Source: Gammaproteobacteria bacterium | GTDB taxonomy: Bacteria; Pseudomonadota; Gammaproteobacteria; Pseudomonadales; Azotimanducaceae | DNA: 64,000 bases | Assembly: GCA_009839505.1 (NCBI GenBank) | Contig: VXPO01000013.1 | Span: 43,300-107,299, forward strand | Reading direction: 5' to 3' | In this document: in pieces, positions 22,195-35,182 of the stretch | How the letters are laid out: the number at the start of each line of letters is the position of its first letter | Numbering within the stretch: the first letter of the stretch is position 1 | Notes under the pieces: generated by a model | Told to the model about the DNA's origin: nothing | Databases searched by the model: none | The model's input: the letters and a program-made list of their open reading frames with translations, nothing else | Program-made: the position numbers and the translations under genes

Positions 22195-22752
22195 CTACGG
22201 GAGTTCCGTCCACGACAGCCGGCGGGCCCTGCTACCGTCCTGGGCGCGGCCGAAAGTACTCTGCAGGGTCACCGTGACGCCCGCGGTCGCCCCGGTGCCG
22301 CGGGCGGTGACGCCGAAGACATCCATCGTCACCGGTTGCAGCGGGTTGTCCTTCGGCCCGGTGTCGGTAAGGGTTGTCAGCCACTCGATGAGGTAGCGAG
22401 GCTGCTGCTCGACGCCGGGCACCGACGATTCGGGAACACGGCCCTCTTTCCAGACGTCGGAGCGCCGCCATGGTGGCATCCCACCGTAGTCCGGACTGGT
22501 CGCCAAACCCCCGGTCCCCGCTGCCGTGAACGTGTCCACGGGGTCGCCGCCGCCTTCGACGAGCCACCGCTCCGCATCGACCAACGCCGCCTCGGCCGCA
22601 TGGAACGCCAGCACGGCATCCGTCGCGTTCCGCGCCATGCGCAGCTCCAAGGTCGTGGTTCTGGCCGCAGCCAGGGACCCGACGGTAAGAGCAAGCAGCA
22701 GTCCGAGAGCCACGACAAGGACGAAGCCGCGGGCGGGTCTACCTGCCATCAT
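22195..22752 (-). CDS. pilX: Type IV pilus minor pilin PilX (PilX N-terminal domain)
   Basis: GFVLVVALGLLLALTVGSLAAARTTTLELRMARNATDAVLAFHAAEAALVDAERW. Confidence 0.7.
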   Translation of the reverse strand: MMAGRPARGFVLVVALGLLLALTVGSLAAARTTTLELRMARNATDAVLAFHAAEAALVDAERWLVEGGGDPVDTFTAAGTGGLATSPDYGGMPPWRRSDVWKEGRVPESSVPGVEQQPRYLIEWLTTLTDTGPKDNPLQPVTMDVFGVTARGTGATAGVTVTLQSTFGRAQDGSRARRLSWTELP

Positions 22753-23819
22753 CGGTTACGCAACGCCAAGGTACGTGAGAAACGCCGCGACAGTGCCTGA
22801 CCATCGGTGGTGACGACGTCCACACTGGACACCACCAACGACACCCGTACGGTGCGCACGGGATCCGTGGTGTCCCCGGGTGGCACGTAGCGAGTCGGCG
22901 CGCGGGAACCATCGTCCGGGATGCCGTCGACGCCGAACATGATCTCCATGTCCTCGATGCCCTCGATGAGTTCCACGGCCCGACGCGTCGACGTCTTGCG
23001 CCACAGGGACCAGACAGCGTCGTGCCGGTTGTTGGTGCCACTCCCCTCGGCCACGAAGTAGATCTCGGTCACGACATGGGCGACCGCTGCGCCTGCAGGC
23101 TGGTCCTCGTCACCGAAGGGATCGAGGTCGACGAACACCGAGGCAGCGGGCCGATTGTCGAACGGACCACTCCCGCTGGTCCGCGTGAGCGTCGTCCTCC
23201 CAACGCCTCCGCCGGTATCGTCGATGCGCACCAGTGCCGCTTGTCGGCAGTCGGACACCAAGGCGAAGTCGCCCGTAAGGGAGGAGTCCTCGTCCAGCAT
23301 CACCGTGAGCGGGTCGGCGTCCGACCAAGGCGCGGCAAGTCGATGGAGCGGCGCTTCGACCCGGCGAAACACGACAACATCGCTACCCGGTTTCAGCCGC
23401 GCGGGGGCGATGCGGTTGCGGGACTTGAAAGCCTGTCCCGATCCATCCACGCCTCGCAGGGGCAAGGCGGACAGCGGCGGGTTCCAGTCTTCCGCACCGT
23501 TCCCCGCGCCAACGCCGTCGAAGCCATCCACGGCGACCGCGATCCCAACCTCGACGACTCGCTCCCAGGCGCCGTTGAGACCGTTGACGACGTCAACCCC
23601 GGACGAACAGCCGAGGTAGCCCGCGCCGCGTGCCGACCGGGCAAGGAATGCGAAGGCGTGACGAACCGACTCCTGCAGACCGGCCTCGCCCGAGAGCAGG
23701 ACGTTGCTTCTGCTCGAGGCGGCGAACAGCTGCACCAGCGCCGCCGCTACGACGACGCCCAGCGAGGCGGCGAGGAGGATCTCGAGGAGCGAGAATCCCC
23801 CAACGGATCGCCCGCTCAT
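22749..23819 (-). CDS. pilW: Type IV pilus minor pilin PilW
   Basis: GGFSLLEILLAASLGVVVAAALVQLFAASSRSN. About 356 aa. Sits between pilV and pilX with 4-nt overlaps. Confidence 0.8.
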   Translation of the reverse strand: MSGRSVGGFSLLEILLAASLGVVVAAALVQLFAASSRSNVLLSGEAGLQESVRHAFAFLARSARGAGYLGCSSGVDVVNGLNGAWERVVEVGIAVAVDGFDGVGAGNGAEDWNPPLSALPLRGVDGSGQAFKSRNRIAPARLKPGSDVVVFRRVEAPLHRLAAPWSDADPLTVMLDEDSSLTGDFALVSDCRQAALVRIDDTGGGVGRTTLTRTSGSGPFDNRPAASVFVDLDPFGDEDQPAGAAVAHVVTEIYFVAEGSGTNNRHDAVWSLWRKTSTRRAVELIEGIEDMEIMFGVDGIPDDGSRAPTRYVPPGDTTDPVRTVRVSLVVSSVDVVTTDGQALSRRFSRTLALRNR

Positions 23820-24316
23820 CCACGTCCTCCCCGGATCACGAGTTCTCGAGGTTCATGCCCCTGCCAGGTCACCGTCACCGAGAACGCGCCGTCGCCCGCC
23901 GAGTCGACGCCACCGTCGCCCCCTGGTAGTCCGGGCTGTTCCCGCGGGTCGCCCAGTAGGCCGGTGGCGCGAATCGCCGCACAGCTCGACTCGGCGTGCC
24001 AACGGCCCAGTGAACACTTCCACACCGCCAAGTCGAACGCCGCTAGTTCCGCCGCGTCGCAGTCGCGTGCGAGGCAGTCCACGAACGCCGGCGGCGGTGT
24101 GCCCGGTCCCGTGGTGTACGTTCCGGCGGTGTTCGCCTGGATGCGATCCGCCATGTCCTCCGCCAGCATAACCGCCAACGTGGTCTCAAGCGCCGTTCGG
24201 GCGTTGCGGGCACTCGCAAGCTGCAACCCCGCGACCCCCAACACGCCCACGGCGACGACCAGTATCGCAACGAGGAGTTCGATCAACGAGTAGCCGCGGC
24301 GCATCAGTCGGTCCAT
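23816..24316 (-). CDS. pilV: Type IV pilus minor pilin PilV
   Basis: RRGYSLIELLVAILVVAVGVLGVAGLQLASARNARTA. Confidence 0.8.
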   Translation of the reverse strand: MDRLMRRGYSLIELLVAILVVAVGVLGVAGLQLASARNARTALETTLAVMLAEDMADRIQANTAGTYTTGPGTPPPAFVDCLARDCDAAELAAFDLAVWKCSLGRWHAESSCAAIRATGLLGDPREQPGLPGGDGGVDSAGDGAFSVTVTWQGHEPRELVIRGGRG

Positions 24317-24759
24317 TGCTGCTCCCGGGCATCATCGAAGTCGCCGTCGCCATTGCGGTCCCAACGCCGAGCGCCAACGCTGTCCAGTTCGAGCACGCCT
24401 TCCGCGGCCGCCGCCCCGTCGCTGCGCGGGACAGCCCGCAACACGAAGCCGTTGGAATTCGAGGCCTGCAGGCGGATCTCGTAGACATCGGCCCTGACCG
24501 CGCACAGGTTCTCCGAGACCGGCCCCGTGGAAGCGTCTCCCACGCTGTCTCCATCGGTGTCCACCGCCATCGCGTAGCCCATGGTTTGTGTGGCGTGGCG
24601 TTCCAACCCTTGGGCACAGCGAAGCAGGTCGGCCTGAGCGTTGACCCGATGGGCGCGTAGGCCGTACGTCGTGTACACCGGCACCGCCACCGAGACGACG
24701 ATGGCGAGGATCGCCACCGCCACCAATAGTTCGAGAAGCGAGAACGCCCTATGAAGCAT
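24304..24759 (-). CDS. pilE: PilE-type type IV pilin-like protein
   Basis: HRAFSLLELLVAVAILAIVVSVAVPVYTTYGLRAHRVNAQADLLRCAQGLERH matches the COG4968-style pattern Y..Y..R..R..AQ..L...A..LER. Confidence 0.7.
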   Translation of the reverse strand: MLHRAFSLLELLVAVAILAIVVSVAVPVYTTYGLRAHRVNAQADLLRCAQGLERHATQTMGYAMAVDTDGDSVGDASTGPVSENLCAVRADVYEIRLQASNSNGFVLRAVPRSDGAAAAEGVLELDSVGARRWDRNGDGDFDDAREQQWTD

Positions 24760-24796
24760 GTACCACCCGTGACCGCAGCGGCGCGGACGGTTGGCG

Positions 24797-25270
24797 CTAC
24801 GGAATGGCGACCTTCAGTATGGTGACATCGAACACCAGATCGCGCCCGGCCAAGGGATGGTTGAAGTCCACCAAGACCGTCTCCGGACCCACCGAGCGCA
24901 CAACGCCCGGGACTTCGCCGCCCGCCGCCGCAAAGGCGATCATCATCCCCGGTTCGAGGTCCGAGGCGTTAGGGAAATCCGCCCGAGGCAGCGTGCGAAT
25001 GTTCTCCTTCTGGTGCAATCCAAAACCCTGGGCGGGCGGAATGGAGATTCGCTCGTCATCACCGGCGCGCAGGCCGAAGAGCGCACGTTCGAAACCGCCC
25101 GGCAGGTTGCCGTCGCCTACGATGAAGGTCGCCGGCTTGGAGCGCCGGGTCGTATCGATCTCTTCCCCCGATTCGAGATGGATCGAGAAGTGCAGCGTCA
25201 CCCGCGTGCCGGGACCGATGGCGATGTCGTCTGCGGAGCCCCTCCCCTCCCGTGCGATGAGCTGGTTCAC
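24797..25270 (-). CDS. fkpB: FKBP-type peptidyl-prolyl isomerase (FkpB/SlpA-like)
   Basis: GTRVTLHFSIHLESGEEIDTT...FIVGDGNLPGGFERALFGLRAGD...VDFNHPLAGRDLVFDVTILKV. The GTG at 25270 overlaps the lspA stop. The upstream part of the 301-aa track ORF overlaps lspA and is rejected. Confidence 0.85.
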   Translation of the reverse strand: MNQLIAREGRGSADDIAIGPGTRVTLHFSIHLESGEEIDTTRRSKPATFIVGDGNLPGGFERALFGLRAGDDERISIPPAQGFGLHQKENIRTLPRADFPNASDLEPGMMIAFAAAGGEVPGVVRSVGPETVLVDFNHPLAGRDLVFDVTILKVAIP

Positions 25271-25758
25271 TCGGGCGTTCCGTCGGATCCGGTGGCGGCG
25301 CGACGGCGCCGGGTCCGTATCACATCGGAGGCGATCAGCGCGATCCAGCCCGCAGCGCCCACCGTGATGGCGCTGTCCGCCACGTTGAACACCGGAAAGT
25401 TGAACCAGCCGTAGTGCACATGGACGAAGTCGACGACACAGCCGCGGATCAGCCGGTCCACGAGGTTGCCGACGGCACCGGCGAGGATGAGCGCATTGGA
25501 GACGCCTTCCAGGGACGTGGTGGTGTACCGCCAGATCGCCACGATCAGGTAGACCGAGACCAGTACGGCGGCGATGGCGAACAGCCAGCCGAGATCCTGG
25601 AACATGCTGAATGCCGCACCCGTGTTGCAGGTCAGCGTCCACGACAGGAACGGCAGCACATCGACGGATCGGCCGCCATCGAGCAGAGCGAGAGCGAGCC
25701 ATTTCGTCGCCTGATCAAGCGTCAGCACCACGACGGCCAGGCCGTACCAGCGCATCAT
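25267..25758 (-). CDS. lspA: Lipoprotein signal peptidase II
   Basis: ...NTGAAFS... and WFNFPVFNVADSAITVGA. Confidence 0.93.
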   Translation of the reverse strand: MMRWYGLAVVVLTLDQATKWLALALLDGGRSVDVLPFLSWTLTCNTGAAFSMFQDLGWLFAIAAVLVSVYLIVAIWRYTTTSLEGVSNALILAGAVGNLVDRLIRGCVVDFVHVHYGWFNFPVFNVADSAITVGAAGWIALIASDVIRTRRRRAATGSDGTPE

Positions 25759-26717
25759 CCCTTGCCGCTGTCCACGCCTTGCATGAGGGCCGGGCGTTGA
25801 GCGAAGTACTCCCGTATTCGTCGGATATCGCGTTCCATCTCGACGCGCAGCGCGTCCAGCGACGGGAATAGGCGCTCCTCGCGGATCTTGTGGTGCAACG
25901 TGACGGTCAACAGACGCCCGTAGATGTCCTCGTCAAAGTCGAGCACGTGAACTTCCAAGAGCGGTTCCTTGCCTCCCACCGTGGGCCGGACCCCTAGATT
26001 GGCCGCCCCCAGGCGGGTCGGGCCGATGCCGTCCACCGTCACCGCGAACACGCCTTCGAGGGCCGCCTTGTAGCGTTGCAGGCGGATGTTGGCCGTTGGC
26101 ACGCCCAGCTCCTGCCCGAGCCGGCAGCCATAGACCACGCGGCCCATGATGAAGTACGGACGCCCGAGAAGTTTTTCGGCGAGCCTGAAGTCGCCTGCCG
26201 CGAGAGCTTCGCGGATCCGGGTACTGCTGACCCGCTCGTGATCGAACGTCAGCGTACCCATATGACTAACGCCGAAGCCGAGACGGTCGCCGGCCCGCTT
26301 GAGCATCGCGTAGTCACCCTCGCGGTCGCGCCCGAACTGGAAGTCGTCCCCCACCACGAGGTAGCGCACGCCGAGCAGGTCGACCAGGAACCGTTCGATC
26401 ACCTCGTCGGCCGGGATCAGGCGGGTACGCTCGTTGAACGGGATGCACAGCACCCGGTCGATCCCCGACTCGCACAGCAGATGGATCTTCTCCCGGAACC
26501 GCGTCAGCCGCGCCGGCGCTGGCGTGTGCTGGAAGTACTCGCGCGGCTGCGGCTCGAAAGTGACCAGCACGCTTGGCGCACCCAATTCGCGACTCTTGGC
26601 TGTCAGATGCGCGAGCAGCATCTGGTGGCCGTAGTGCACACCGTCGAACGTGCCGATGGTCGCCACGCACCCCGCGTGACGGGGCCGGATGTTGTGCAGA
26701 CCGCGGATGATCTCCAT
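25755..26717 (-). CDS. ribF: Bifunctional riboflavin kinase / FAD synthetase
   Basis: CVATIGTFDGVHYGHQMLL and the C-terminal GRPYFIMGRVVYGCRLGQELGVPTANI. Confidence 0.93.
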   Translation of the reverse strand: MEIIRGLHNIRPRHAGCVATIGTFDGVHYGHQMLLAHLTAKSRELGAPSVLVTFEPQPREYFQHTPAPARLTRFREKIHLLCESGIDRVLCIPFNERTRLIPADEVIERFLVDLLGVRYLVVGDDFQFGRDREGDYAMLKRAGDRLGFGVSHMGTLTFDHERVSSTRIREALAAGDFRLAEKLLGRPYFIMGRVVYGCRLGQELGVPTANIRLQRYKAALEGVFAVTVDGIGPTRLGAANLGVRPTVGGKEPLLEVHVLDFDEDIYGRLLTVTLHHKIREERLFPSLDALRVEMERDIRRIREYFAQRPALMQGVDSGKG

Positions 26718-26849
26718 AGCGCGCGGAGTGTATTACACGACGGTCAGTGCGATGGCGTTCGTCGATGACGATTCGTCCCCAATGTTGGGGACGCGCGGCT
26801 CCCGGATCGTTGTCTACGCTTCACGACTCGGAGGTGGAGTCCACGCGCG

Positions 26850-29846
26850 ATGCCTGATCGCACAGTCAATGGGCCGAACGACCGGGATCCCAATCGCGCA
26901 CCCCCAGCCTGCGGGTCATCGCCGCCGACGCCGCAGGGATGGGGCATCCCTCATCTATCCGTCGCCCTGATGGTTGCCATCGGGCCATGGCAACTGGAAC
27001 ATTGCATCGCTGCGGAGCACGTGGTCCCGTTGTTCCTTTCCGCGTCCGACGGCGAACGAGAGAGCTTCGTTCGGGTCATCAATCGTTCGGAGGAAGGTGC
27101 CGACGTGCGAATCACCGCCACCGACGACTCGGGCTGGCGCCCGGGAGACCTCACGCTCACGGTCGGCGCGCGCGAGGCTGTGCACTTCAATTCGACGGAC
27201 TTCGAGCAGGGCAACTCCGAGAAAGGCTTGCAGAGTGCCGCGGGGGCACCCGTTGAAGGCGACTGGCGTCTTGTACTCGACAGCGGGTTGGACTTGGAGA
27301 TCCTGAGCTACATCCGCACCAGCGACGGCATGCTCAGCAGCATGCACGACACCGTGCCCCGCACCGAGTCCCGGCATCGCGTGTCGACTTTCAATCCGGG
27401 GTCCAACGTCAACCAGGTCAGCCGGTTGCGCTTGGTCAATCCGGGCGAGGAGGAAGTCGAGGTGGCGATCCGCGGCATCGACGACAGCGGCGCGTCCCCC
27501 GGAGCGGATACTCGATTGATGATTCGGCCCGGGGCTGCGGCGACGTTCACCGCGCAGGAACTCGAGGCGGGTTCCGCACCCGAGCTCGACGGCGGAATCG
27601 GCGACGGCTACGGCAAGTGGCAGCTGATCGTGACCGCGGATCAGCCCATCTGGGTGATGAGCCTTCTCGACAGCCCGACCGGTCACCTGACGAACCTGTC
27701 GACCCCAGGTTCGGAACACGGCCCATTCCACCGGGTGGATCTGTTCCCACAATCGTCCAATCCAGACCTGGAGGGATTCGTACGCGTGATCAATCACGGC
27801 GACGAATCTGGGATCGTGCGCGTCCGGGCACTCGACGGATCAGGCAGGGACTACGGGACAGTCGAACTCACGCTGGGGACAGGGCGGTCCGCTCACTTCA
27901 ACTCGACCGACCTGGAGGCCGGCAACGCCAACAAGGGGTTGCCGGTGGGCGTCGGCCCGGGCAACGGCCCGTGGCGGTTGGAACTGGAAACGGACCTCGA
28001 CATCGAGCTGCTGAGCTACATCCGAACGCCGGACGGGTTCCTGGCAGCCATGCATGACCACGTGCCGCCTGCGGTGAACCGACACCGCGTCTCGACCTTC
28101 AATCCAGCCAGGAACACGAACCAGGTGAGCCAACTACGGATGATCAATCCGGCAGACAAGCCGGTCGACGTGGCGATTCGGGGTCTCGATGGCAAAGGCG
28201 AGTCACCCGGTGACGAAGTGCGCCTCACCCTGCAGGCGCACGCCGCACGAACGCTGACGGCCCAGGACCTCGAGTCGGGCGAGGCAGACGGCCTGACGGG
28301 TGCACTCGCCACGGGCGCCGGCAAGTGGCAGTTGATCGTCGCGGCCGACCACCCTATCCGGCTGATGAGTCTGCTGGCGAGCCCCACCGGACATCTCTTG
28401 AACCTGTCGACGAGGCCGACCCGGAAGCACGTGGGCCCGATCACCGACCGCTTCGAGGCGTGGAACACGAGACTCGAACCCAAATCGTGGTGGAAGGAGT
28501 CCGCGCCATATTCCTGCCGCCCGACGGAGAATCCGAACTCGCCCTGGCTGAGCGCGGGTCTGCCGGATCTCGGCGGGAGCGATCCACTGTCGCTGATCCG
28601 CTACTACGGGAACGGCAGCTACGTGAGGTACGGAAACATGGGGTTCGCGGGTTGTACGCTCTTGTGGAAGTATCCACGCGCCACTTATTCCGACACGCCC
28701 GCCGACCCGACCTACTACACGCCCGAGGTGGACATCACGGTCGACATCGCGCGTGTTCCGCTCGACGCGCCGGGCTGGCCCAGCGAGGAACGGGTCGACG
28801 TGACGCTCGACGAGACGGTGGACCTGCTGAACCAGCACGTCACTCCCTACTACCACAAACTCTCCGAAGGCCAGTTCCGCGTCGCGTTCCACAAGGGGGT
28901 CGACTTCGAGGTTCCGGGGGATGGGTCCAAGGAAGCGCTGAAGGCGCGTCACCGCGAGATCCTCGGCCTGGATTGCACGGACTGGCCCTGCAGCGACTAC
29001 GATTCCGGCGCCGTCAATCGAATGCTGTTCGTGAACGTGCCGAGACTCGGTGCCGGTGCCTGGAACGGAAACGCGCAGATTGGCCTCGCGCACATCGAGC
29101 ATGCCAACATGCGGGTGATCGTGCACGAAATCGGGCATGCATGGCTCTTCTGGCCACACTCCTATGTGGAGATGCTCTGGCAACCGTATCCTGACGACGA
29201 GCTTGGAGACCCCAACCCGTACAGCAACCCCTACGACTTCATGTCGACGCTCAAAGAGAAAAACGGCTGGCGCCAGAGCATGCCGGCAACCCTTGCCATC
29301 AATCGCTACTCCGCAGGCTGGATACCACCAGAAAACGTGGCGCTGCATGTCACGGCCTCCGCGACCTATACGTTGCGCAGGCCGTACGACGGCGGCTACC
29401 AGTTCCTGGTGGTTCACTCGGGCCGCCCGTACGCCTTCACGACGCTGGAGGTGCCCGACCACCGCGATCCGGAATACCTGCGCGAGCACTGGGTCTACGA
29501 CCCGGACGCTCCCGACGAGCGTCGGTTGTTCCGCTACGACGGTGTACTCGTCAGTCGTTACGACCAATCGACGGGCACGGGCGTTCTAGCCCGGTTTGGC
29601 CCGGCCTTTTTCGACCGGCGCAACCCCAACTTCCAATCGGACGCAGGCTGGGGACGCGACGATCACTCGCTGCTCGTCGACGGCGAGACGCGCGACATCG
29701 GCGGTGTCGAGGTCGCGGTCGTCGGCAATGCGGACGGGAGCTACGACGTGACGCTAACGGGTGGCCGCATCGCCGAGTTCGAAACCTGGTGCAAGAAGCG
29801 ACTCGGAACGTTCGACACCGGTTGCGCGTTCGACGAGCCCCGTTGA
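26850..29846 (+). CDS. Large modular protein: duplicated unassigned N-terminal module plus a C-terminal HExxH metallopeptidase-like domain
   Basis: 998-aa ORF. Module A (aa about 57-286) and module B (aa about 294-522) are clearly homologous. HEIGH is at nt 29124-29138 (VIVHEIGHAWLFWPHSY). The start is uncertain (ATG 26850 or ATG 26969) and I see no clean signal peptide. Confidence 0.75.
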   Translation: MPDRTVNGPNDRDPNRAPPACGSSPPTPQGWGIPHLSVALMVAIGPWQLEHCIAAEHVVPLFLSASDGERESFVRVINRSEEGADVRITATDDSGWRPGDLTLTVGAREAVHFNSTDFEQGNSEKGLQSAAGAPVEGDWRLVLDSGLDLEILSYIRTSDGMLSSMHDTVPRTESRHRVSTFNPGSNVNQVSRLRLVNPGEEEVEVAIRGIDDSGASPGADTRLMIRPGAAATFTAQELEAGSAPELDGGIGDGYGKWQLIVTADQPIWVMSLLDSPTGHLTNLSTPGSEHGPFHRVDLFPQSSNPDLEGFVRVINHGDESGIVRVRALDGSGRDYGTVELTLGTGRSAHFNSTDLEAGNANKGLPVGVGPGNGPWRLELETDLDIELLSYIRTPDGFLAAMHDHVPPAVNRHRVSTFNPARNTNQVSQLRMINPADKPVDVAIRGLDGKGESPGDEVRLTLQAHAARTLTAQDLESGEADGLTGALATGAGKWQLIVAADHPIRLMSLLASPTGHLLNLSTRPTRKHVGPITDRFEAWNTRLEPKSWWKESAPYSCRPTENPNSPWLSAGLPDLGGSDPLSLIRYYGNGSYVRYGNMGFAGCTLLWKYPRATYSDTPADPTYYTPEVDITVDIARVPLDAPGWPSEERVDVTLDETVDLLNQHVTPYYHKLSEGQFRVAFHKGVDFEVPGDGSKEALKARHREILGLDCTDWPCSDYDSGAVNRMLFVNVPRLGAGAWNGNAQIGLAHIEHANMRVIVHEIGHAWLFWPHSYVEMLWQPYPDDELGDPNPYSNPYDFMSTLKEKNGWRQSMPATLAINRYSAGWIPPENVALHVTASATYTLRRPYDGGYQFLVVHSGRPYAFTTLEVPDHRDPEYLREHWVYDPDAPDERRLFRYDGVLVSRYDQSTGTGVLARFGPAFFDRRNPNFQSDAGWGRDDHSLLVDGETRDIGGVEVAVVGNADGSYDVTLTGGRIAEFETWCKKRLGTFDTGCAFDEPR

Positions 29847-29982
29847 GGTCGCACCGAGGGACGACCGCGCCGCCCGCTCGCGGGGCTACAATCCATGCTC
29901 CACTCGAACGTCGGGGAGCCGCGTGCGACTCGCAAAGGCAGCCGCCCGGCTAGAAAACGCCGTCTCGCCAAAGCTCGATACG

Positions 29983-31500
29983 ATGCTCCGCGTCGGCTGG
30001 GCAGTGGTCCTCGCCTGCTTCCTGATCCTGGCCATCGGATCACTCGTCGGAGTACTCAGCAAGGACGAGTCCGCATTCGCCTATGTCGCGAAGGGGTTCC
30101 TGAACGGCGAAATCCCCTACGTGGACCGTTGGGACCAGAAGGGGCCACTGACGTACGTCTTAAGCCTGATCGGTGTGTTGATAAACGACCTTTGGGGTAT
30201 CCGGGTTCTAGCAGGAGTCTTCCTGATCGGTTCGACCGTCGCCGCCTACAAGCTGATCCGTAACGGCTTCGGTCAATTGGCCGCGTTCTTTGCCACCACG
30301 ACACTACTGGTCTACTACGCCAGACTAGATCCAGGTGGCCTTACGGAACACTACGCACTCCTATTCCAGTTCTTGGCCCTGCACGCCTTCGTGCGAATTG
30401 AACGTCAGGCTGGCGCCGGGTTACCGCTCGCCTTCCTCGTGGGTGTACTTGGTGCAGCAGCTTTTCTGCTGCGTCCAAACCTGGTCGGTGTCTGGCTCGC
30501 GATGGGCATCTACTGGATCATCCGTGACCGGGGGATTCCCGTGCGGATGTGGGCGGCCGTTCTGGGAGGCTCAACGGCGCTGGTGGTCGTCGCCGGATTA
30601 CTCCTACTCGTAGGCGGTCTGTCGGCGTTCTGGGATGCCACCTTCACCTACAACTTCCATGCCTACGGCGAAGCTTCGAGCCCTGCCGACCGTCTTTGGA
30701 CACTTCGCCACGGCCGTTCAGTCCTGCTGCCAGTTGTTGTCATCTTCGTTTGTGCGTGGTTCGTCGCACTCTACGCCGTTGTGTTTCGGCCGGAATTGCC
30801 GGGCGGAGACCACCCGCTAGTCCGTCTCGCCGTAGTCCTTGCGCCCCTCGAACTTCTGTTGGTGTCCGTATCTGGGTACGGCTACGCCCACTACTACATC
30901 GCGTTGCTTCCCGCGATCCTTTTGTTGCTTTCGTTCGCAGTGTGGTTCGTCGTCGAACAGCGTCATGTTGCGGCAACGTTCCTCAGCGTGGTGCTTCTAA
31001 TCGGCAGTGCACACTACTACCGCGCCTACGACGCGGTACCCAAAACGATCAGCCGGGTGAAGTCGGACGTTGGTCGTGGTGACCTTCGCTATCAGTTCGC
31101 GGATCGCATCCGGCAGACGACATCCCCTGGGGACACTGTTCTTGTCTGGGGTTTCCAACCCCTCGTGCATCTCGTGGCCGAACGGGATTCCCCCACTCGC
31201 TATTTCTACCAGTTCCCGCTCATGATGCCCGGCTACACGAGCCGTGCACTTATCGACGGATTCACACAAGACGTTCGGGCGAAGGTCCCCGCGGCGATCC
31301 TCGACCAACGCGACCATAGGCTTCCGCCCTTGGACCACACCGCCCGTAGCCAATGGCGTGGCGCTCCCCGATACCTCGACGATGCGACGTTGTTCGACGC
31401 CCTCTTCGACTTCGTGGACGAGAACTACGAGGCCGTGGAGAAACGCTCCGATTGGGTGCTTTATGCGCTGAAGACACCGAACTCGGCAAGTAGCAGATGA
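29983..31500 (+). CDS. GT-C fold glycosyltransferase (ArnT/PMT_2, GT39/GT83-like)
   Basis: MLRVGWAVVLACFLILAIG...KDESAFAYVAKGFLNGEIPYVDRWDQKGPLTYVL shows the DE loop plus the WD-x-K-x-P motif typical of this family. More than 10 predicted TM helices. Confidence 0.8.
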   Translation: MLRVGWAVVLACFLILAIGSLVGVLSKDESAFAYVAKGFLNGEIPYVDRWDQKGPLTYVLSLIGVLINDLWGIRVLAGVFLIGSTVAAYKLIRNGFGQLAAFFATTTLLVYYARLDPGGLTEHYALLFQFLALHAFVRIERQAGAGLPLAFLVGVLGAAAFLLRPNLVGVWLAMGIYWIIRDRGIPVRMWAAVLGGSTALVVVAGLLLLVGGLSAFWDATFTYNFHAYGEASSPADRLWTLRHGRSVLLPVVVIFVCAWFVALYAVVFRPELPGGDHPLVRLAVVLAPLELLLVSVSGYGYAHYYIALLPAILLLLSFAVWFVVEQRHVAATFLSVVLLIGSAHYYRAYDAVPKTISRVKSDVGRGDLRYQFADRIRQTTSPGDTVLVWGFQPLVHLVAERDSPTRYFYQFPLMMPGYTSRALIDGFTQDVRAKVPAAILDQRDHRLPPLDHTARSQWRGAPRYLDDATLFDALFDFVDENYEAVEKRSDWVLYALKTPNSASSR

Positions 31501-31626
31501 TGGAACGCAATTCGACGCTGGCGCCACGATGGACGCCCCAACGGTAGGCCGTTCGACTTTCGGGGAAGCCCCGCATAGGATGCGGCGTTTGCAATAGGAG
31601 GTGCGCTGGCTTCGGCGCTGCCGCAA

Positions 31627-33396
31627 TTGGGTTTTTGGGGAAATCGGTCCGTGCACGGCGCGGTTGGCGAGGAGCGGTCTCGGCTCGCGGCCGGATCGGA
31701 AGGAGCGTACAAGCTCGCCTTTGCAGTGTTGGTGATCGTGGCCGCCCTCGGGTTCACCTATACGAGATCCGATGGCAACTTTCCTCCGTTCGAACTGCGC
31801 GATGTCCTTCTGCGCGTGCTGGTCTTCTGCGGCGTCCTACTCGTTGCGGCTCTCGCACTTCCACGGAGGAGCGTTTCGAACGCGGCGTTGGCCCTTGTTA
31901 CCCTGGCCGGCGTATTCACCGCGTACGTAGTCCACACGCAACTGTTCGATCCCTCGCACCGAGTCTGGATGATCATCGTGCTGGCCGCGTCGTTCTTCGC
32001 CCTCTTCACAGCCTTCCAGGTCATCGAGCAGCGCCGCTGGGCCGGGAACGTGCTCATGGGGGCCGCTGCCCTAGCTGGAGCCGCGGCCGCGTGGCCGGAA
32101 ATCGAACCGGAGCTGCGATCAGGTCTGAGCACCCCCGGTGGCCTGCTCGGTGTGCGCAATCCGGCAATGTGGGCCGTGGTGGCACTGGCGGGCATCAGCT
32201 CAGTGCTGGCGCCATACCTCTTGTCCAAGGTCGTGCGGCCTGTCCATTGGGGAGGACTCGCGTTGCTGGCTGTGGCGTCGGTGCTCGCAATGTTGATATT
32301 CGTGCTTGGATCGAAATTCGGCGAGGACGGCTCCGGCTACTACAGCGGTGGATGGGAGGACCATCCAAACGTACGGTCGGTAACATTCGAAGAGACCCCC
32401 AACATCTACTTCGTCGGGTTCGACTCGATCGCCCCTGAGGCCATCATGCGCAAGTACATGGGACTCGAAACGACCGATTTCCACGGAGTATTGGGAAGGG
32501 AGATGCGGCGACTCCGGAACCTGTTCGCCAATGGTGATCGCACGACGTTCTCGTTCAACGCCTTGATGGCGTTGGACCAGCGAATCTATCTCGAGAACAG
32601 GAACGCCGGTGGCCTGCCAAGCTATTTCGCCGGCCACGACCTCAGCCCGCTGATCTGGCTCTTAAGGTTGAACGGGTACGAAACCACGTCCATCTACCAA
32701 GACACCTTCTTCGGTCGCGAGCAAGGACCGCACATAGACAACTACGTGGTCAACAGAAGGAAAGCGCTCTGCTCGCTGTTGGACGAAGACGCAAGGGCAT
32801 TGGCATTCTGGGGCTACTGCTGGACCTTGGGAACACAACGCCTCCCTGCCACAGAACGAGTCCGTGCCGGAGACTTCCTAGTTCAGCAACTGTCCGCCAT
32901 CGACAGGGAGAGTCCTCAATTCGTGATCGCGCACTTCGGTTTACCTGGCCACACGCCGAAGATCTTCGACTACAACAACAAGAGCGACATGGAACGTTTT
33001 TTGCCGGAGTTTGTGAGAGGTTTCAACACGGCGGCCATCTACCTGGAGCAGATCATCGAACACCTCAGAGCCAATGATCCCGACGCCATCTTGTTTGTCT
33101 TTGGCGACCACGGCGCTTGGCTGTCGCGGGGGGTGGATGTCGAAGACAATCCGGCCTTCTTCCTGCAGGACCGGTTTGGGATTCTCGGCGGAGTGTACCC
33201 CCGCGACAGGTGCGCGGCGGAGTTGGACGCGGCCGAGGGGAAGGGCTACGCGACGTCTCTGGACGTAGTGCACGCGATAATCGAATGTCTGTCGGACGGG
33301 CAGAGCCCGCTTGTCGAGCCGAGGCGCGACAGGTTTTGGACTCCCGACCTTCCGGAGAACCACTCGTACGACTACAAGGAGTTCCTGTACGAGTAG
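31627..33396 (+). CDS. Membrane-anchored alkaline-phosphatase-superfamily (sulfatase / LtaS / EptA-like) protein
   Basis: N-terminal polytopic region, then a soluble domain with NIYFVGFDSIAPE, HFGLPGHTP and FVFGDHGAW (metal-ligand-like motifs). Confidence 0.6.
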   Translation: MGFWGNRSVHGAVGEERSRLAAGSEGAYKLAFAVLVIVAALGFTYTRSDGNFPPFELRDVLLRVLVFCGVLLVAALALPRRSVSNAALALVTLAGVFTAYVVHTQLFDPSHRVWMIIVLAASFFALFTAFQVIEQRRWAGNVLMGAAALAGAAAAWPEIEPELRSGLSTPGGLLGVRNPAMWAVVALAGISSVLAPYLLSKVVRPVHWGGLALLAVASVLAMLIFVLGSKFGEDGSGYYSGGWEDHPNVRSVTFEETPNIYFVGFDSIAPEAIMRKYMGLETTDFHGVLGREMRRLRNLFANGDRTTFSFNALMALDQRIYLENRNAGGLPSYFAGHDLSPLIWLLRLNGYETTSIYQDTFFGREQGPHIDNYVVNRRKALCSLLDEDARALAFWGYCWTLGTQRLPATERVRAGDFLVQQLSAIDRESPQFVIAHFGLPGHTPKIFDYNNKSDMERFLPEFVRGFNTAAIYLEQIIEHLRANDPDAILFVFGDHGAWLSRGVDVEDNPAFFLQDRFGILGGVYPRDRCAAELDAAEGKGYATSLDVVHAIIECLSDGQSPLVEPRRDRFWTPDLPENHSYDYKEFLYE

Positions 33397-33550
33397 ATGC
33401 CGGTCCCCCCATCAGTTGAGCGGCCGCGGGTAGCCGCTTAGCTACCTGGCATCCCCGGGTGCCGGAATCGCGTCTGCCGTCGCGGGCTTCCAGTTGCAGC
33501 GTGCCGCACATCGAGTGTAGTGAGCGTCCACGCGGTCGTCCGGTTGGCGC

Positions 33551-35086
33551 TCATGCGCGGTGGCGCAGGTCCTTCGGCCGGATGCCTGCGGCGAGGACGA
33601 GCGCCGAGTAGACGGCGAGCCCGGCGATGATCACGAGTGCGAGATGACCGGCACGCGACCAGCCCTCCGCTGTCGTCCAGTGGGCGTCGTGGGGAACCAG
33701 GAACCACAGGGCGGCGGCCATCGCTGCCGTAGCCATTAGGGACGTGGCGATCACGCGGGCCAGTGGTCGGCCAGGACGGTAGTGACCGCCGGCGATGAGC
33801 GTACCCACGAGGAGCCCCGCGTTGACGACCGCGGCCAGGCTCGTGGCGAGCGCAAGCCCGATGTGGCCCAGCCACCAGAACGTCCCGAGGCTCGCGGCGA
33901 CGTTGACGGCCACCGATGCGACGGCGAACTTGAGCGGCGTGGTCGCATCCTCCCGGGAGAAGTAGCCGGGTACGGCGATCTTGACCAGCACCAGGGGCAC
34001 AAGCCCGAGGGCGAAGGCGCGCAATGCCGCTGCCGCCATTTCCGCGTCCCGGGGCTGCATCTGGCCGTGGAGGAAGATCGTCGCCATCAGCGGATAGGCC
34101 AGCATCCACAGCGCAACCGCCGCCGGGATACCGAGGAGCAATCCGGTACGCATGCCCCAGTCGAGGGTGGCGTTGTACTTGGCGCGCTCTCCCTGCTGAT
34201 GGAGCCGCGACAGGTTGGGCAGTAGAACGGTGCCAAGGGCGACCGCGACAACGCCGATGGGCACTTCCCAAAGTCGGTCGGCGTAGTAAAGCCAAGCGGC
34301 GCTCCCCTGCTCGAGAAACGACGTGAGCACGGTCCCCACCAACGCGTTGACCTGGTAGGCCGAGCCCGCGAACACGGCCGGCAACAGCAACCGGAATACC
34401 TTGCCGACGCCCTCGTGGCGCCAGTTCGGCACCGGCGCCACCAATAGGCCGACACGTGCCACCGGCAGGCCGTGGAACAGGAGCTGGGCCACCCCACCGG
34501 CGAGTACGCCCCAAGCCAGCGCCCGTGCTGCGCCGACGACATCCGAGCCCGCACCGGCAGCCCACAGCGCCGCGACGATCAGTGAGACGTTGAGGAGCAC
34601 CGGGGTGAACGCCGGCACGGCGAACCGGTTGGCGCTGTTCAGGATCGCACCGGCAAAGGCGGTGAAGGAGATCAATCCGAGATAGGGGAACATGATTCGC
34701 GTCAGGTCGGTCGCCAGCGCGAACTGTTCGGGGTCGTCGATGAAACCCGGCATGAAGACCGCCGCGAGCAAGGACGCTCCGAGCGCTCCCGCCACCGAAA
34801 CGCCAATCAACACCACGCCAAGGTCGCCGGCAACAGCCGATACGAAAGCCCGCGCGCCAGCCTGGCTGCCCTTCTCGCGGTACTCGGTCAGGATCGGCAC
34901 GAAGGCCAGCGCGAAGGATGCCTCGGCGAACAGTCGGCGGAAGAAGTTGGGAACCCGGAACGCCAGGATGAACGTATCCGCCGCCTCGGACGCGCCCACC
35001 ACATGCGCAAGGACCCAGTCCCGTGCCAGCCCCGAGACACGGGACAGGACGGTCATCCCCGCGAAGCTGCCTCCCTGGGCGGCCAT
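33551..35086 (-). CDS. murJ: Lipid II flippase MurJ (MviN)
   Basis: [66 protein letters not shown]. The ATG at 35086 gives 511 aa; the track ORF extends to 35158. Confidence 0.9.
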
Positions 35087-35182
35087 GTCGCTGTCCGTGC
35101 CGCCGCCCGCCCCCACGGCGACCTGCCGGGTGTCCATCGGATCTATGCCGTTGCTCACGCTCTCCGATCGTCCATGGGCAGA

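Follow-up and report, generated by a model that had tools for sequence, protein, structure and literature searches.

Pseudoalteromonas tunicata has Slr4 (Pfam PF19526) as its S-layer protein. Slr4 is exported to the cell surface in marine Gammaproteobacteria; it has a Sec signal peptide and a locus linked to a type II secretion system (T2SS), and it forms a p4 lattice (PMC7821379). DUF5719 (PF18986) is a family without known function, for which a full-text literature search returned no paper. Among metallopeptidases, BF3526 of Bacteroides fragilis is an M64 IgA peptidase (PMC12402451), and the M64 igalysins bear the motif HExxHxxxGxxD, with the third ligand at +11 (PMC12237041). The 64,000-nt stretch of DNA analysed here (the window, within which all nucleotide positions are counted) encodes on its plus strand, at 26850..29846, a 998-residue protein whose N-terminal part appears distantly related to Slr4 and DUF5719 and whose C-terminal part is predicted to resemble metzincin-type peptidases.

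This protein joins two modules, each of which moves between proteins on its own. It is probably a metzincin-type peptidase that is exported and that has as its carrier a shuffled β-sandwich block with no catalytic role. The carrier is the more novel of the two elements and deserves a family definition. The open reading frame (ORF) is the sole long one agreeing with homologues, and its product is 100% identical to the 998-aa hypothetical protein F4X98_01465 of a Gammaproteobacteria metagenome-assembled genome (MAG), the locus-tag series of which suggests a sponge origin. No further copies were found within the window by tblastn, and a promoter and terminator scan of 26600-30200 found nothing. 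The features of the gene are as follows.

26830..26839, plus strand: Shine-Dalgarno-like GGAGGTGGAG, 10-19 nt upstream of the ATG at 26850, read from the sequence
26850..29846, plus strand: whole ORF, 998 aa and stop
26850..27014, plus strand: leader, aa 1-55, with a 35-aa N-extension, hydrophobic core LSVALMVAIGPW and a putative signal-peptidase site between CIAA and EH
27018..27365, plus strand: sub-domain A1, aa 57-172, type-1 β-sandwich (FVRVIN...HFNSTDFEQGN...WRL...YIRTSDG...MHD)
27366..27707, plus strand: sub-domain A2, aa 173-286, type-2 β-sandwich (FNPGSN...LRLVNP...GKWQL...SPTGHLTNLST)
27729..28073, plus strand: sub-domain B1, aa 294-408, type 1, 52% identity to A1 (E=7e-38)
28074..28415, plus strand: sub-domain B2, aa 409-522, type 2, 62% identity to A2 (E=2e-50)
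28416..28712, plus strand: pre-catalytic segment, aa 523-621, conserved, with two conserved Cys
28713..29330, plus strand: predicted metzincin-like catalytic core, aa 622-827, from the α/β elements of an AlphaFold2 (AF2) model, Foldseek and TIGR03296
29124..29159, plus strand: predicted zinc-binding motif H759-E760-I-G-H763-A-W-L-F-W-P-H770 (HExxHx6H)
29241..29243, plus strand: M798 in DFMS, candidate Met-turn methionine
29331..29843, plus strand: C-terminal β-rich sub-domain of the peptidase module, aa 828-998, with a conserved Cys981...Cys992 pair at its end

The N-terminal block and its family

Modules A (aa 57-286, nt 27018-27707) and B (aa 294-522, nt 27729-28415) can be aligned over their full length with a single gap and share 128 of 229 residues (56%, BLASTP E=4e-87), which bears out the internal duplication proposed in a first-pass annotation made from the sequence. 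Their DNA is 62% identical, with no identical stretch longer than 14 nt. The same annotation had seen four copies of a probably β-rich sub-domain. This is far beyond chance, because the half-modules, 28-36% identical, match each other with E-values of 5.7e-11 (A1-A2), 8e-17 (B1-B2), 5.5e-17 (A2-B1), and 6.9e-12 (A1-B2). The AF2 model of aa 41-525 (30-sequence alignment; mean predicted local distance difference test, pLDDT, 93.3; predicted template-modelling score, pTM, 0.90) agrees on both counts, displaying four units of ~8 strands with one short helix. The four domains of ~113 aa alternate between the two types, a type 1 domain coming first. As a pTM of 0.90 indicates a fixed arrangement of the four domains and not beads on a string, the model suggests that the block is a rigid unit.

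The duplication had also been called ancient, which holds in part. Compared with the close orthologues P0002 and P0003, identities are 72% (A-A) and 75% (B-B), against 50-59% in cross comparisons; the A/B split therefore predates these proteins. Family-wide, however, A and B are not separate lineages: between proteins, A-A and A-B identities are 55.7% and 55.1%. Within a single protein, A and B are on average 63.6% and at most 97.8% identical; the value is 80% for the fusion protein P0013, as compared to 56% for the window protein. Such high within-protein values indicate repeated, and in some homologues apparently recent, re-duplication or gene conversion inside the module genes. The truly old event is the split between type 1 and type 2, which are 28-36% identical.

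Foldseek matches of the block model include the MG domains of complement and α-2-macroglobulin, Bacteroides SGBP-B, the GH32 β-sandwich, CBM4, and capsid jelly rolls, with rhamnosidase and ConA-like proteins also in the lists. Since all are generic, the fold class is clear and a specific family is not assignable. The type-1 domains share a strongly conserved polar/aromatic set (HFNS, DLExGN, KGL, WRL, YxRTxDGF, MHD). The module lacks Cys in 206 of 248 proteins and is acidic (pI 4.86 +/- 0.43); S-layer proteins are typically Cys-free and acidic.

The N-terminal modules had been described as outside any known family, with an Ig-like or CARDB-type repeat as the assignment that would overturn this, and the Pfam scans leave that description standing. 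No Ig-like repeat profile (CARDB, Big, fn3, PKD) and no CBM or lectin profile matches the module itself; the CARDB, Big, and fn3 matches of homologues fall in passenger regions, outside the module. The window protein stays below the DUF5719 gathering cut-off of 26.2 bits, both as a whole (20.8 bits) and with only the N-module (24.9 bits), whereas homologues exceed it, scoring as high as 47 bits. At E<=0.001, DUF5719 is matched by 14 of 30 members scanned. Slr4, with a gathering cut-off of 25 bits, has no match in the window protein. It is reached at E<=0.001 by three of 30 members; homologues such as P0027 (42 bits) and P0031 (39.6 bits) exceed its cut-off, over ~100 of the 370 profile positions, i.e. 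one sub-domain. As homologues pass both cut-offs, the sub-domains share a superfamily with a surface-lattice protein and an uncharacterised DUF, as distant homologues of each. Nevertheless, the DUF5719 and Slr4 matches to N-module homologues span only one or two sub-domains, and the descriptions of these families hold neither the fixed four-domain block, nor the SPTGHLTNLST ends, nor the promiscuous fusions of the N-module.

A search with the whole protein retrieves more than 3,500 relatives, most covering only the N-terminal 47% of the query. With an N-module profile, an exhaustive search of 1.84 billion cluster representatives (clusters at 50% identity) returns 3,657 proteins at E<=1e-3, of which 2,294 also reach E<=1e-30; the family thus comprises at least 3,657 protein clusters at 50% identity. 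Named relatives are from Gammaproteobacteria, Alphaproteobacteria, and Acidobacteria MAGs. In the 261 retrieved proteins in which its position was mapped, the module always occurs as the complete four-domain block (hidden Markov model positions about 5-480). It is N-terminal in 157, at the extreme C-terminus in 72, internal in 26, and accompanied by little else in 6. C-terminal copies usually end with ...SPTGHLTNLSTAPxR, 0-7 residues from the stop.

The passengers of the module are diverse. Those for adhesion or binding harbor LRR, cadherin, fn3, Calx-beta, PKD, CARDB, Spondin_N, or TSP3 domains; others are FGE-sulfatase, PSCyt3/CBM60, and YNCE/CBM_4_9 proteins. Peptidase passengers include S8, C1, M9 collagenase, M8, and reprolysin-like enzymes, and in all the block is found fused to six peptidase families. 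P0049 (1601 aa) combines a bona fide M9 collagenase (Peptidase_M9, E=4.6e-100) and LRR repeats with a C-terminal copy of the module. In P0020 and P0054 (about 630 aa), the module is followed by a ~100-aa tail with a CxxCH haem-binding-like motif (SRCVACHVEGG...). By functional analogy only, the block resembles SLH domains, dockerins, and CBMs, which are likewise non-catalytic and located at either end of unrelated extracellular passengers. It has no sequence or fold relationship to them and, at about 465 aa, far exceeds them in size.

The best 80 module loci among GTDB species representatives are all in MAGs. Many carry the bin prefixes RHO, COS, and IRC, which match Rhopaloeides, Coscinoderma, and Ircinia, the sponge hosts in Robbins et al. 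2021 (PMC8163846). Further loci are from Pseudomonadales, Ca. Azotimanducaceae, and Ca. Azophilus. Nine of the 80 lie on one Ca. Azophilus sp. chromosome (OZ244830.1), where the pairs L010/L013 and L011/L052 are only 7-9 kb apart, which points to local paralogue clusters.

The predicted C-terminal peptidase module

The C-terminal domain (C-domain) represents a separate family with at least 236 clusters. Each of them is 50-57% identical to the window protein, and no Pfam domain or protein name is attached to any. Look-ups return "hypothetical protein" or no name, and the few organism labels are Chloroflexi and Gammaproteobacteria MAGs. In 155 full-length members, the domain is always at the C-terminal end, preceded by a short leader (81), by other domains such as PKD (62), or by the N-module (12). 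A second full-length two-module protein, P0011 (F4X98_04785), is encoded in the same MAG as the window protein and is 54% identical to it; its annotated N-terminus has no hydrophobic leader.

The motif HEIGH is found at aa 759-763 (nt 29124-29138), exactly where the first-pass annotation had located it, within the 17-mer VIVHEIGHAWLFWPHSY (nt 29115-29165). The family motif HE[IM]GH[GA]WMxWPHS[YF]xE (in looser form HExGHxWxxWPHSxxE) is present in 155/155 full-length members, in all of which the H, E, H, and H of HExxHx6H are invariant. Exactly six Cys occur in 153 of these 155, and the window protein retains all catalytic and Cys positions. The third His follows the first by 11 residues, the metzincin consensus being one residue shorter, which agrees with the metzincin-like HExxH with a further His and atypical spacing described earlier. 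M798, 28 residues after H770, stands in a column conserved in at least 90% of the alignment and adjoins the invariant D796.

The AF2 model of aa 523-998 (46-sequence alignment; pLDDT 80.8, pTM 0.85) comprises a low-confidence stretch of the first ~100 residues, an α/β core with the HExxH motif in a predicted active-site helix (C-domain residues 232-244), and a confident β-rich C-terminal sub-domain (pLDDT mostly 85-98). The low-confidence stretch is the pre-catalytic segment (aa 523-621), poorly modelled (pLDDT 36-58 over most of it) despite being among the most conserved parts of the peptidase family: WWRES.PYSC...DLGGSDPLSLIR..GNGSY.RYG.MGF.GC. It may be a pro-segment or latency element, or else a metal-dependent loop region. 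A C-terminal sorting domain of the type IX secretion system was rejected because the visible tail is the conserved, probably disulfide-bearing part of the peptidase module.

Among the first 15 Foldseek matches in the PDB, 11 are metzincins or the metzincin-like ADAM22 (M64, M6, ADAMTS-5, ADAM22, TACE); Argonaute2 chains occupy ranks 6, 8, and 10 with probabilities of 0.18-0.28. The M6 profile TIGR03296 matches aa 749-836 (E=0.006 with the whole protein, E=0.0012 with the C-domain alone) and recurs, weakly, in 31 of 46 C-domain members (best E=1.2e-5). No meaningful match was returned by a PDB sequence search with the whole protein or by a profile search with the C-domain; the Pfam scans listed no M64 family, and these PDB searches no M64 chain. 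No annotated peptidase family matching the whole architecture was found; such a match would have contradicted the first-pass annotation. The C-domain is best described as a predicted metzincin-type peptidase of an unclassified family.

M64 BF3526 (PDB 9qdi) is the best structural match (E=5e-3, probability 0.94). M64 igalysins, such as the IgA peptidase of Thomasclavelia ramosa, share with the C-domain the +11 spacing of the third ligand and an aromatic Tyr or Phe two residues beyond it (PMC12237041). In contrast, the third ligand is Asp in M64 and, as predicted, His in the C-domain, which has no Gly in the turn; the accessory domains differ, and identity is 14% in the structural alignment. 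The longest structural alignment (415 columns, probability 0.95) is that with M6 InhA2 of Bacillus anthracis (PDB 4yu6), and it reaches past the catalytic core into the β-rich sub-domain. Like many metzincins, InhA2 starts with a pro-segment; it is secreted and consists of several domains. M6 is also the only peptidase family whose profile gives a recurrent sequence signal in the C-domain, covering the HExxH region. However, the template-modelling score (TM) with InhA2 is 0.31, identity is 11%, and the motif spacing differs.

Export, tethering and competing explanations

The first-pass annotation had left the export route open, no clean signal peptide being visible. The orthologues P0002, P0003, P0004, and P0009 possess clear Sec signal peptides, ending in ...AAAE before an H directly ahead of the module (for example MRLRKTGLFRVAIGLAVVFQGIPSAAAE, then H). 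The window leader aligns with these four; its core LSVALMVAIGPW has a maximum 10-residue Kyte-Doolittle value of 2.48, within the range of family leaders, and it keeps IAA before E, a putative cleavage site. No ribosome-binding motif precedes the alternative ATG at 26969, and a start there would make the leader too short. A hydrophobic leader is found in 127 of 162 proteins with an N-terminal module. Export is thus less of an open question than it had seemed, although the n-region of the window copy is atypical.

As an exported, block-borne peptidase, the protein would be a multi-domain zinc metallopeptidase that a sponge-associated gammaproteobacterium exports through Sec and that is located outside its cytoplasm. 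H759, H763, and, presumably, H770 are the predicted zinc ligands and E760 the predicted general base; M798 probably forms the Met-turn, the six conserved Cys probably form three disulfides, and the pre-catalytic segment may confer latency. The N-block (aa 57-522) would act as a non-catalytic terminal carrier, keeping its passenger at the cell surface or in the host matrix or directing it there. The main argument for this role is indirect. In about 65 of 146 stand-alone C-domain members, a lipobox is followed by a Pro/Thr-rich linker, so that the enzyme is usually membrane-tethered; since the N-block occupies the position of this tether, a tethering or targeting role is suggested. The β-sandwich block would then take the place of the lipid anchor and linker, and the product would likely be a surface-tethered protease acting on extracellular proteins, possibly of the host or of microbes, in the sponge mesohyl. 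That the block itself provides the anchor at the bacterial surface is a tentative proposal, with chances a little short of even; the block may instead bind host material or self-assemble.

Several observations weigh against an exported metzincin-type enzyme mounted on such a carrier. The window leader starts with a 35-aa Pro-rich N-extension and has no basic residue beside its hydrophobic core, which makes export of this copy less certain than that of the orthologues. Of 71 proteins with a C-terminal module, inspected in case the module there serves as a secretion signal in place of a leader, only 31 have a hydrophobic leader, many of the gene calls looking truncated. The HExxHx6H site has no Gly or Asn at +7 and thus lacks the Gly of the canonical HExxHxxGxxH/D. 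The metzincin matches of the C-domain have probabilities of 0.94-0.98 but E-values of 5e-3 or higher and TM values of at most 0.46, and none of the curated peptidase models reaches its cut-off (for TIGR03296, 16.4-18.8 vs 110.8 bits for the window protein). Foldseek searches of PDB and BFVD with the N-block retrieve generic β-sandwich or jelly-roll arrays only, with TM <= 0.18.

The block could alternatively be a lectin- or CBM-like module that binds a glycan or protein of the sponge matrix, concentrating its passengers on host material and not on the bacterial surface. Its sub-domains of ~8 strands, the presence of the GH32 β-sandwich, CBM4, the glycan-binding SGBP-B, rhamnosidase, and ConA-like proteins in the Foldseek lists, the conserved polar/aromatic set of type-1 domains, and a terminal position at either end, which is typical of CBMs, would all fit. 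The structural matches are nevertheless all generic (TM < 0.2), the Pfam scans place no CBM or lectin profile on the module, and many passengers (LRR, cadherin, CBM60) already bind, making a second targeting module less obviously needed; we regard this explanation as somewhat unlikely. A self-assembling, S-layer-like lattice or docking unit, the paralogues of which would co-assemble into a mosaic coat displaying variable passengers, the peptidase included, seems quite unlikely. Slr4, whose cut-off some homologues exceed, is a Sec- and T2SS-exported p4-lattice protein (PMC7821379), yet it is reached by only three of 30 members, over about 100 profile positions, and not by the window protein; furthermore, no associated secretion or anchoring genes are found in the flanks of the 80 loci. 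In favor of a lattice are the Cys-free, acidic, and (pTM 0.90) rigid nature of the block, the homogenisation of A and B within proteins, the existence of module-only proteins, and the many paralogues per genome, with nine of the best 80 loci on the Ca. Azophilus chromosome. A broader proposal, and a rather doubtful one, is that the 465-aa block constitutes an undescribed display system expanded in sponge symbionts, through a shared docking or S-layer-like self-assembling module. Dozens of paralogues per genome would be surface-mounted via the block, including eukaryotic-like proteins with LRR, cadherin, or fn3 domains and no fewer than six families of proteases, and the window peptidase would be one passenger.

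The location of the block N-terminal to the catalytic domain recalls metzincin pro-segments, so that it might be a peptidase-specific pro-domain, intramolecular chaperone, or inhibitor. The domain distribution largely refutes this, and we reject it as extremely improbable: non-enzymes with LRR, cadherin, or fn3 domains bear the same block, 72 of 261 proteins have it at their C-terminus, and 143 of 155 peptidase-family members do without it. Finally, the window copy might be a decaying or non-exported paralogue, left cytoplasmic and non-functional by a degenerate leader. The long Pro-rich extension and the missing basic residue next to the hydrophobic core point this way, as do the location of the gene in an apparent insertion between murJ and ribF and the paralogue P0011, without hydrophobic leader as annotated. 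Such decay is hard to reconcile with an intact 998-codon ORF, with the retention of all catalytic and Cys positions, and with 72-75% identity to orthologues across both modules; the hydrophobic core (2.48) is within the family range, and a Shine-Dalgarno-like motif precedes the ATG at 26850. This explanation is thus very unlikely.

Genomic setting and significance

Three plus-strand genes are located between ribF (25755-26717, minus strand) and murJ (33551-35158, minus strand; MurJ E=8e-122). They span 26850-33396 and comprise the window gene, a weak PMT_2/GT-C-like gene, and a 589-aa ORF (31627-33396, plus strand). The GC content is 0.59-0.62 over 30000-33500 and 0.65-0.69 around it, and the segment between ribF and murJ looks like an insertion island. 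On the 3' (downstream) side of ribF are a PilW-like type IV pilus assembly protein and an FKBP-type isomerase (22749-25702, minus strand). The usual gammaproteobacterial order has ileS/lspA beside ribF; neither was seen between ribF and the FKBP gene.

The 589-aa ORF had been labelled as sulfatase-like or phospho-transfer; with no Pfam match at E<=0.01, this label is not confirmed. A link of the window gene to the GT-C and sulfatase-like neighbours had also been raised, and it is rejected. The loci of P0002, P0003, P0004, and P0009 have unrelated contexts, with transposases, toxin-antitoxin pairs, and giant Calx-beta/fn3/LRR proteins. No neighbour recurs across the 80 related loci, where the clustered flanking ORFs are shadow ORFs and small orthologous groups only. 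As its neighbourhood is not conserved, the gene is a stand-alone unit in flexible genome regions, and its vicinity to envelope genes is incidental.

No genomic signature of sponge symbionts is better known than their eukaryotic-like and adhesion proteins. Many members of the module family carry exactly the domains (LRR, cadherin, fn3) that Robbins et al. 2021 describe for sponge-symbiont eukaryotic-like proteins (PMC8163846). Both modules span more than one phylum of MAGs, C-domain relatives being found in Chloroflexi MAGs too, which fits the lateral transfer of eukaryotic-like genes reported in the same study (PMC8163846). No mention of a shared β-sandwich block was found in the consulted passages of sponge-symbiont papers.

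According to Robbins et al. 2021 (PMC8163846), the necessary secretion systems are encoded in few symbiont lineages. If true, a display system of the kind outlined above would explain how symbionts with few dedicated secretion systems present factors to their host. One terminal module common to thousands of proteins and several protease families offers a testable handle on delivery to the host interface. With the C-domain comes a predicted metzincin family, as yet unclassified, whose HExxHx6H site is 100% conserved. Since Robbins et al. 2021 report no collagenases from sponge MAGs (PMC8163846), proteases left unclassified by family-based annotation, the present one included, may be overlooked when host-matrix turnover or immune evasion is modelled.

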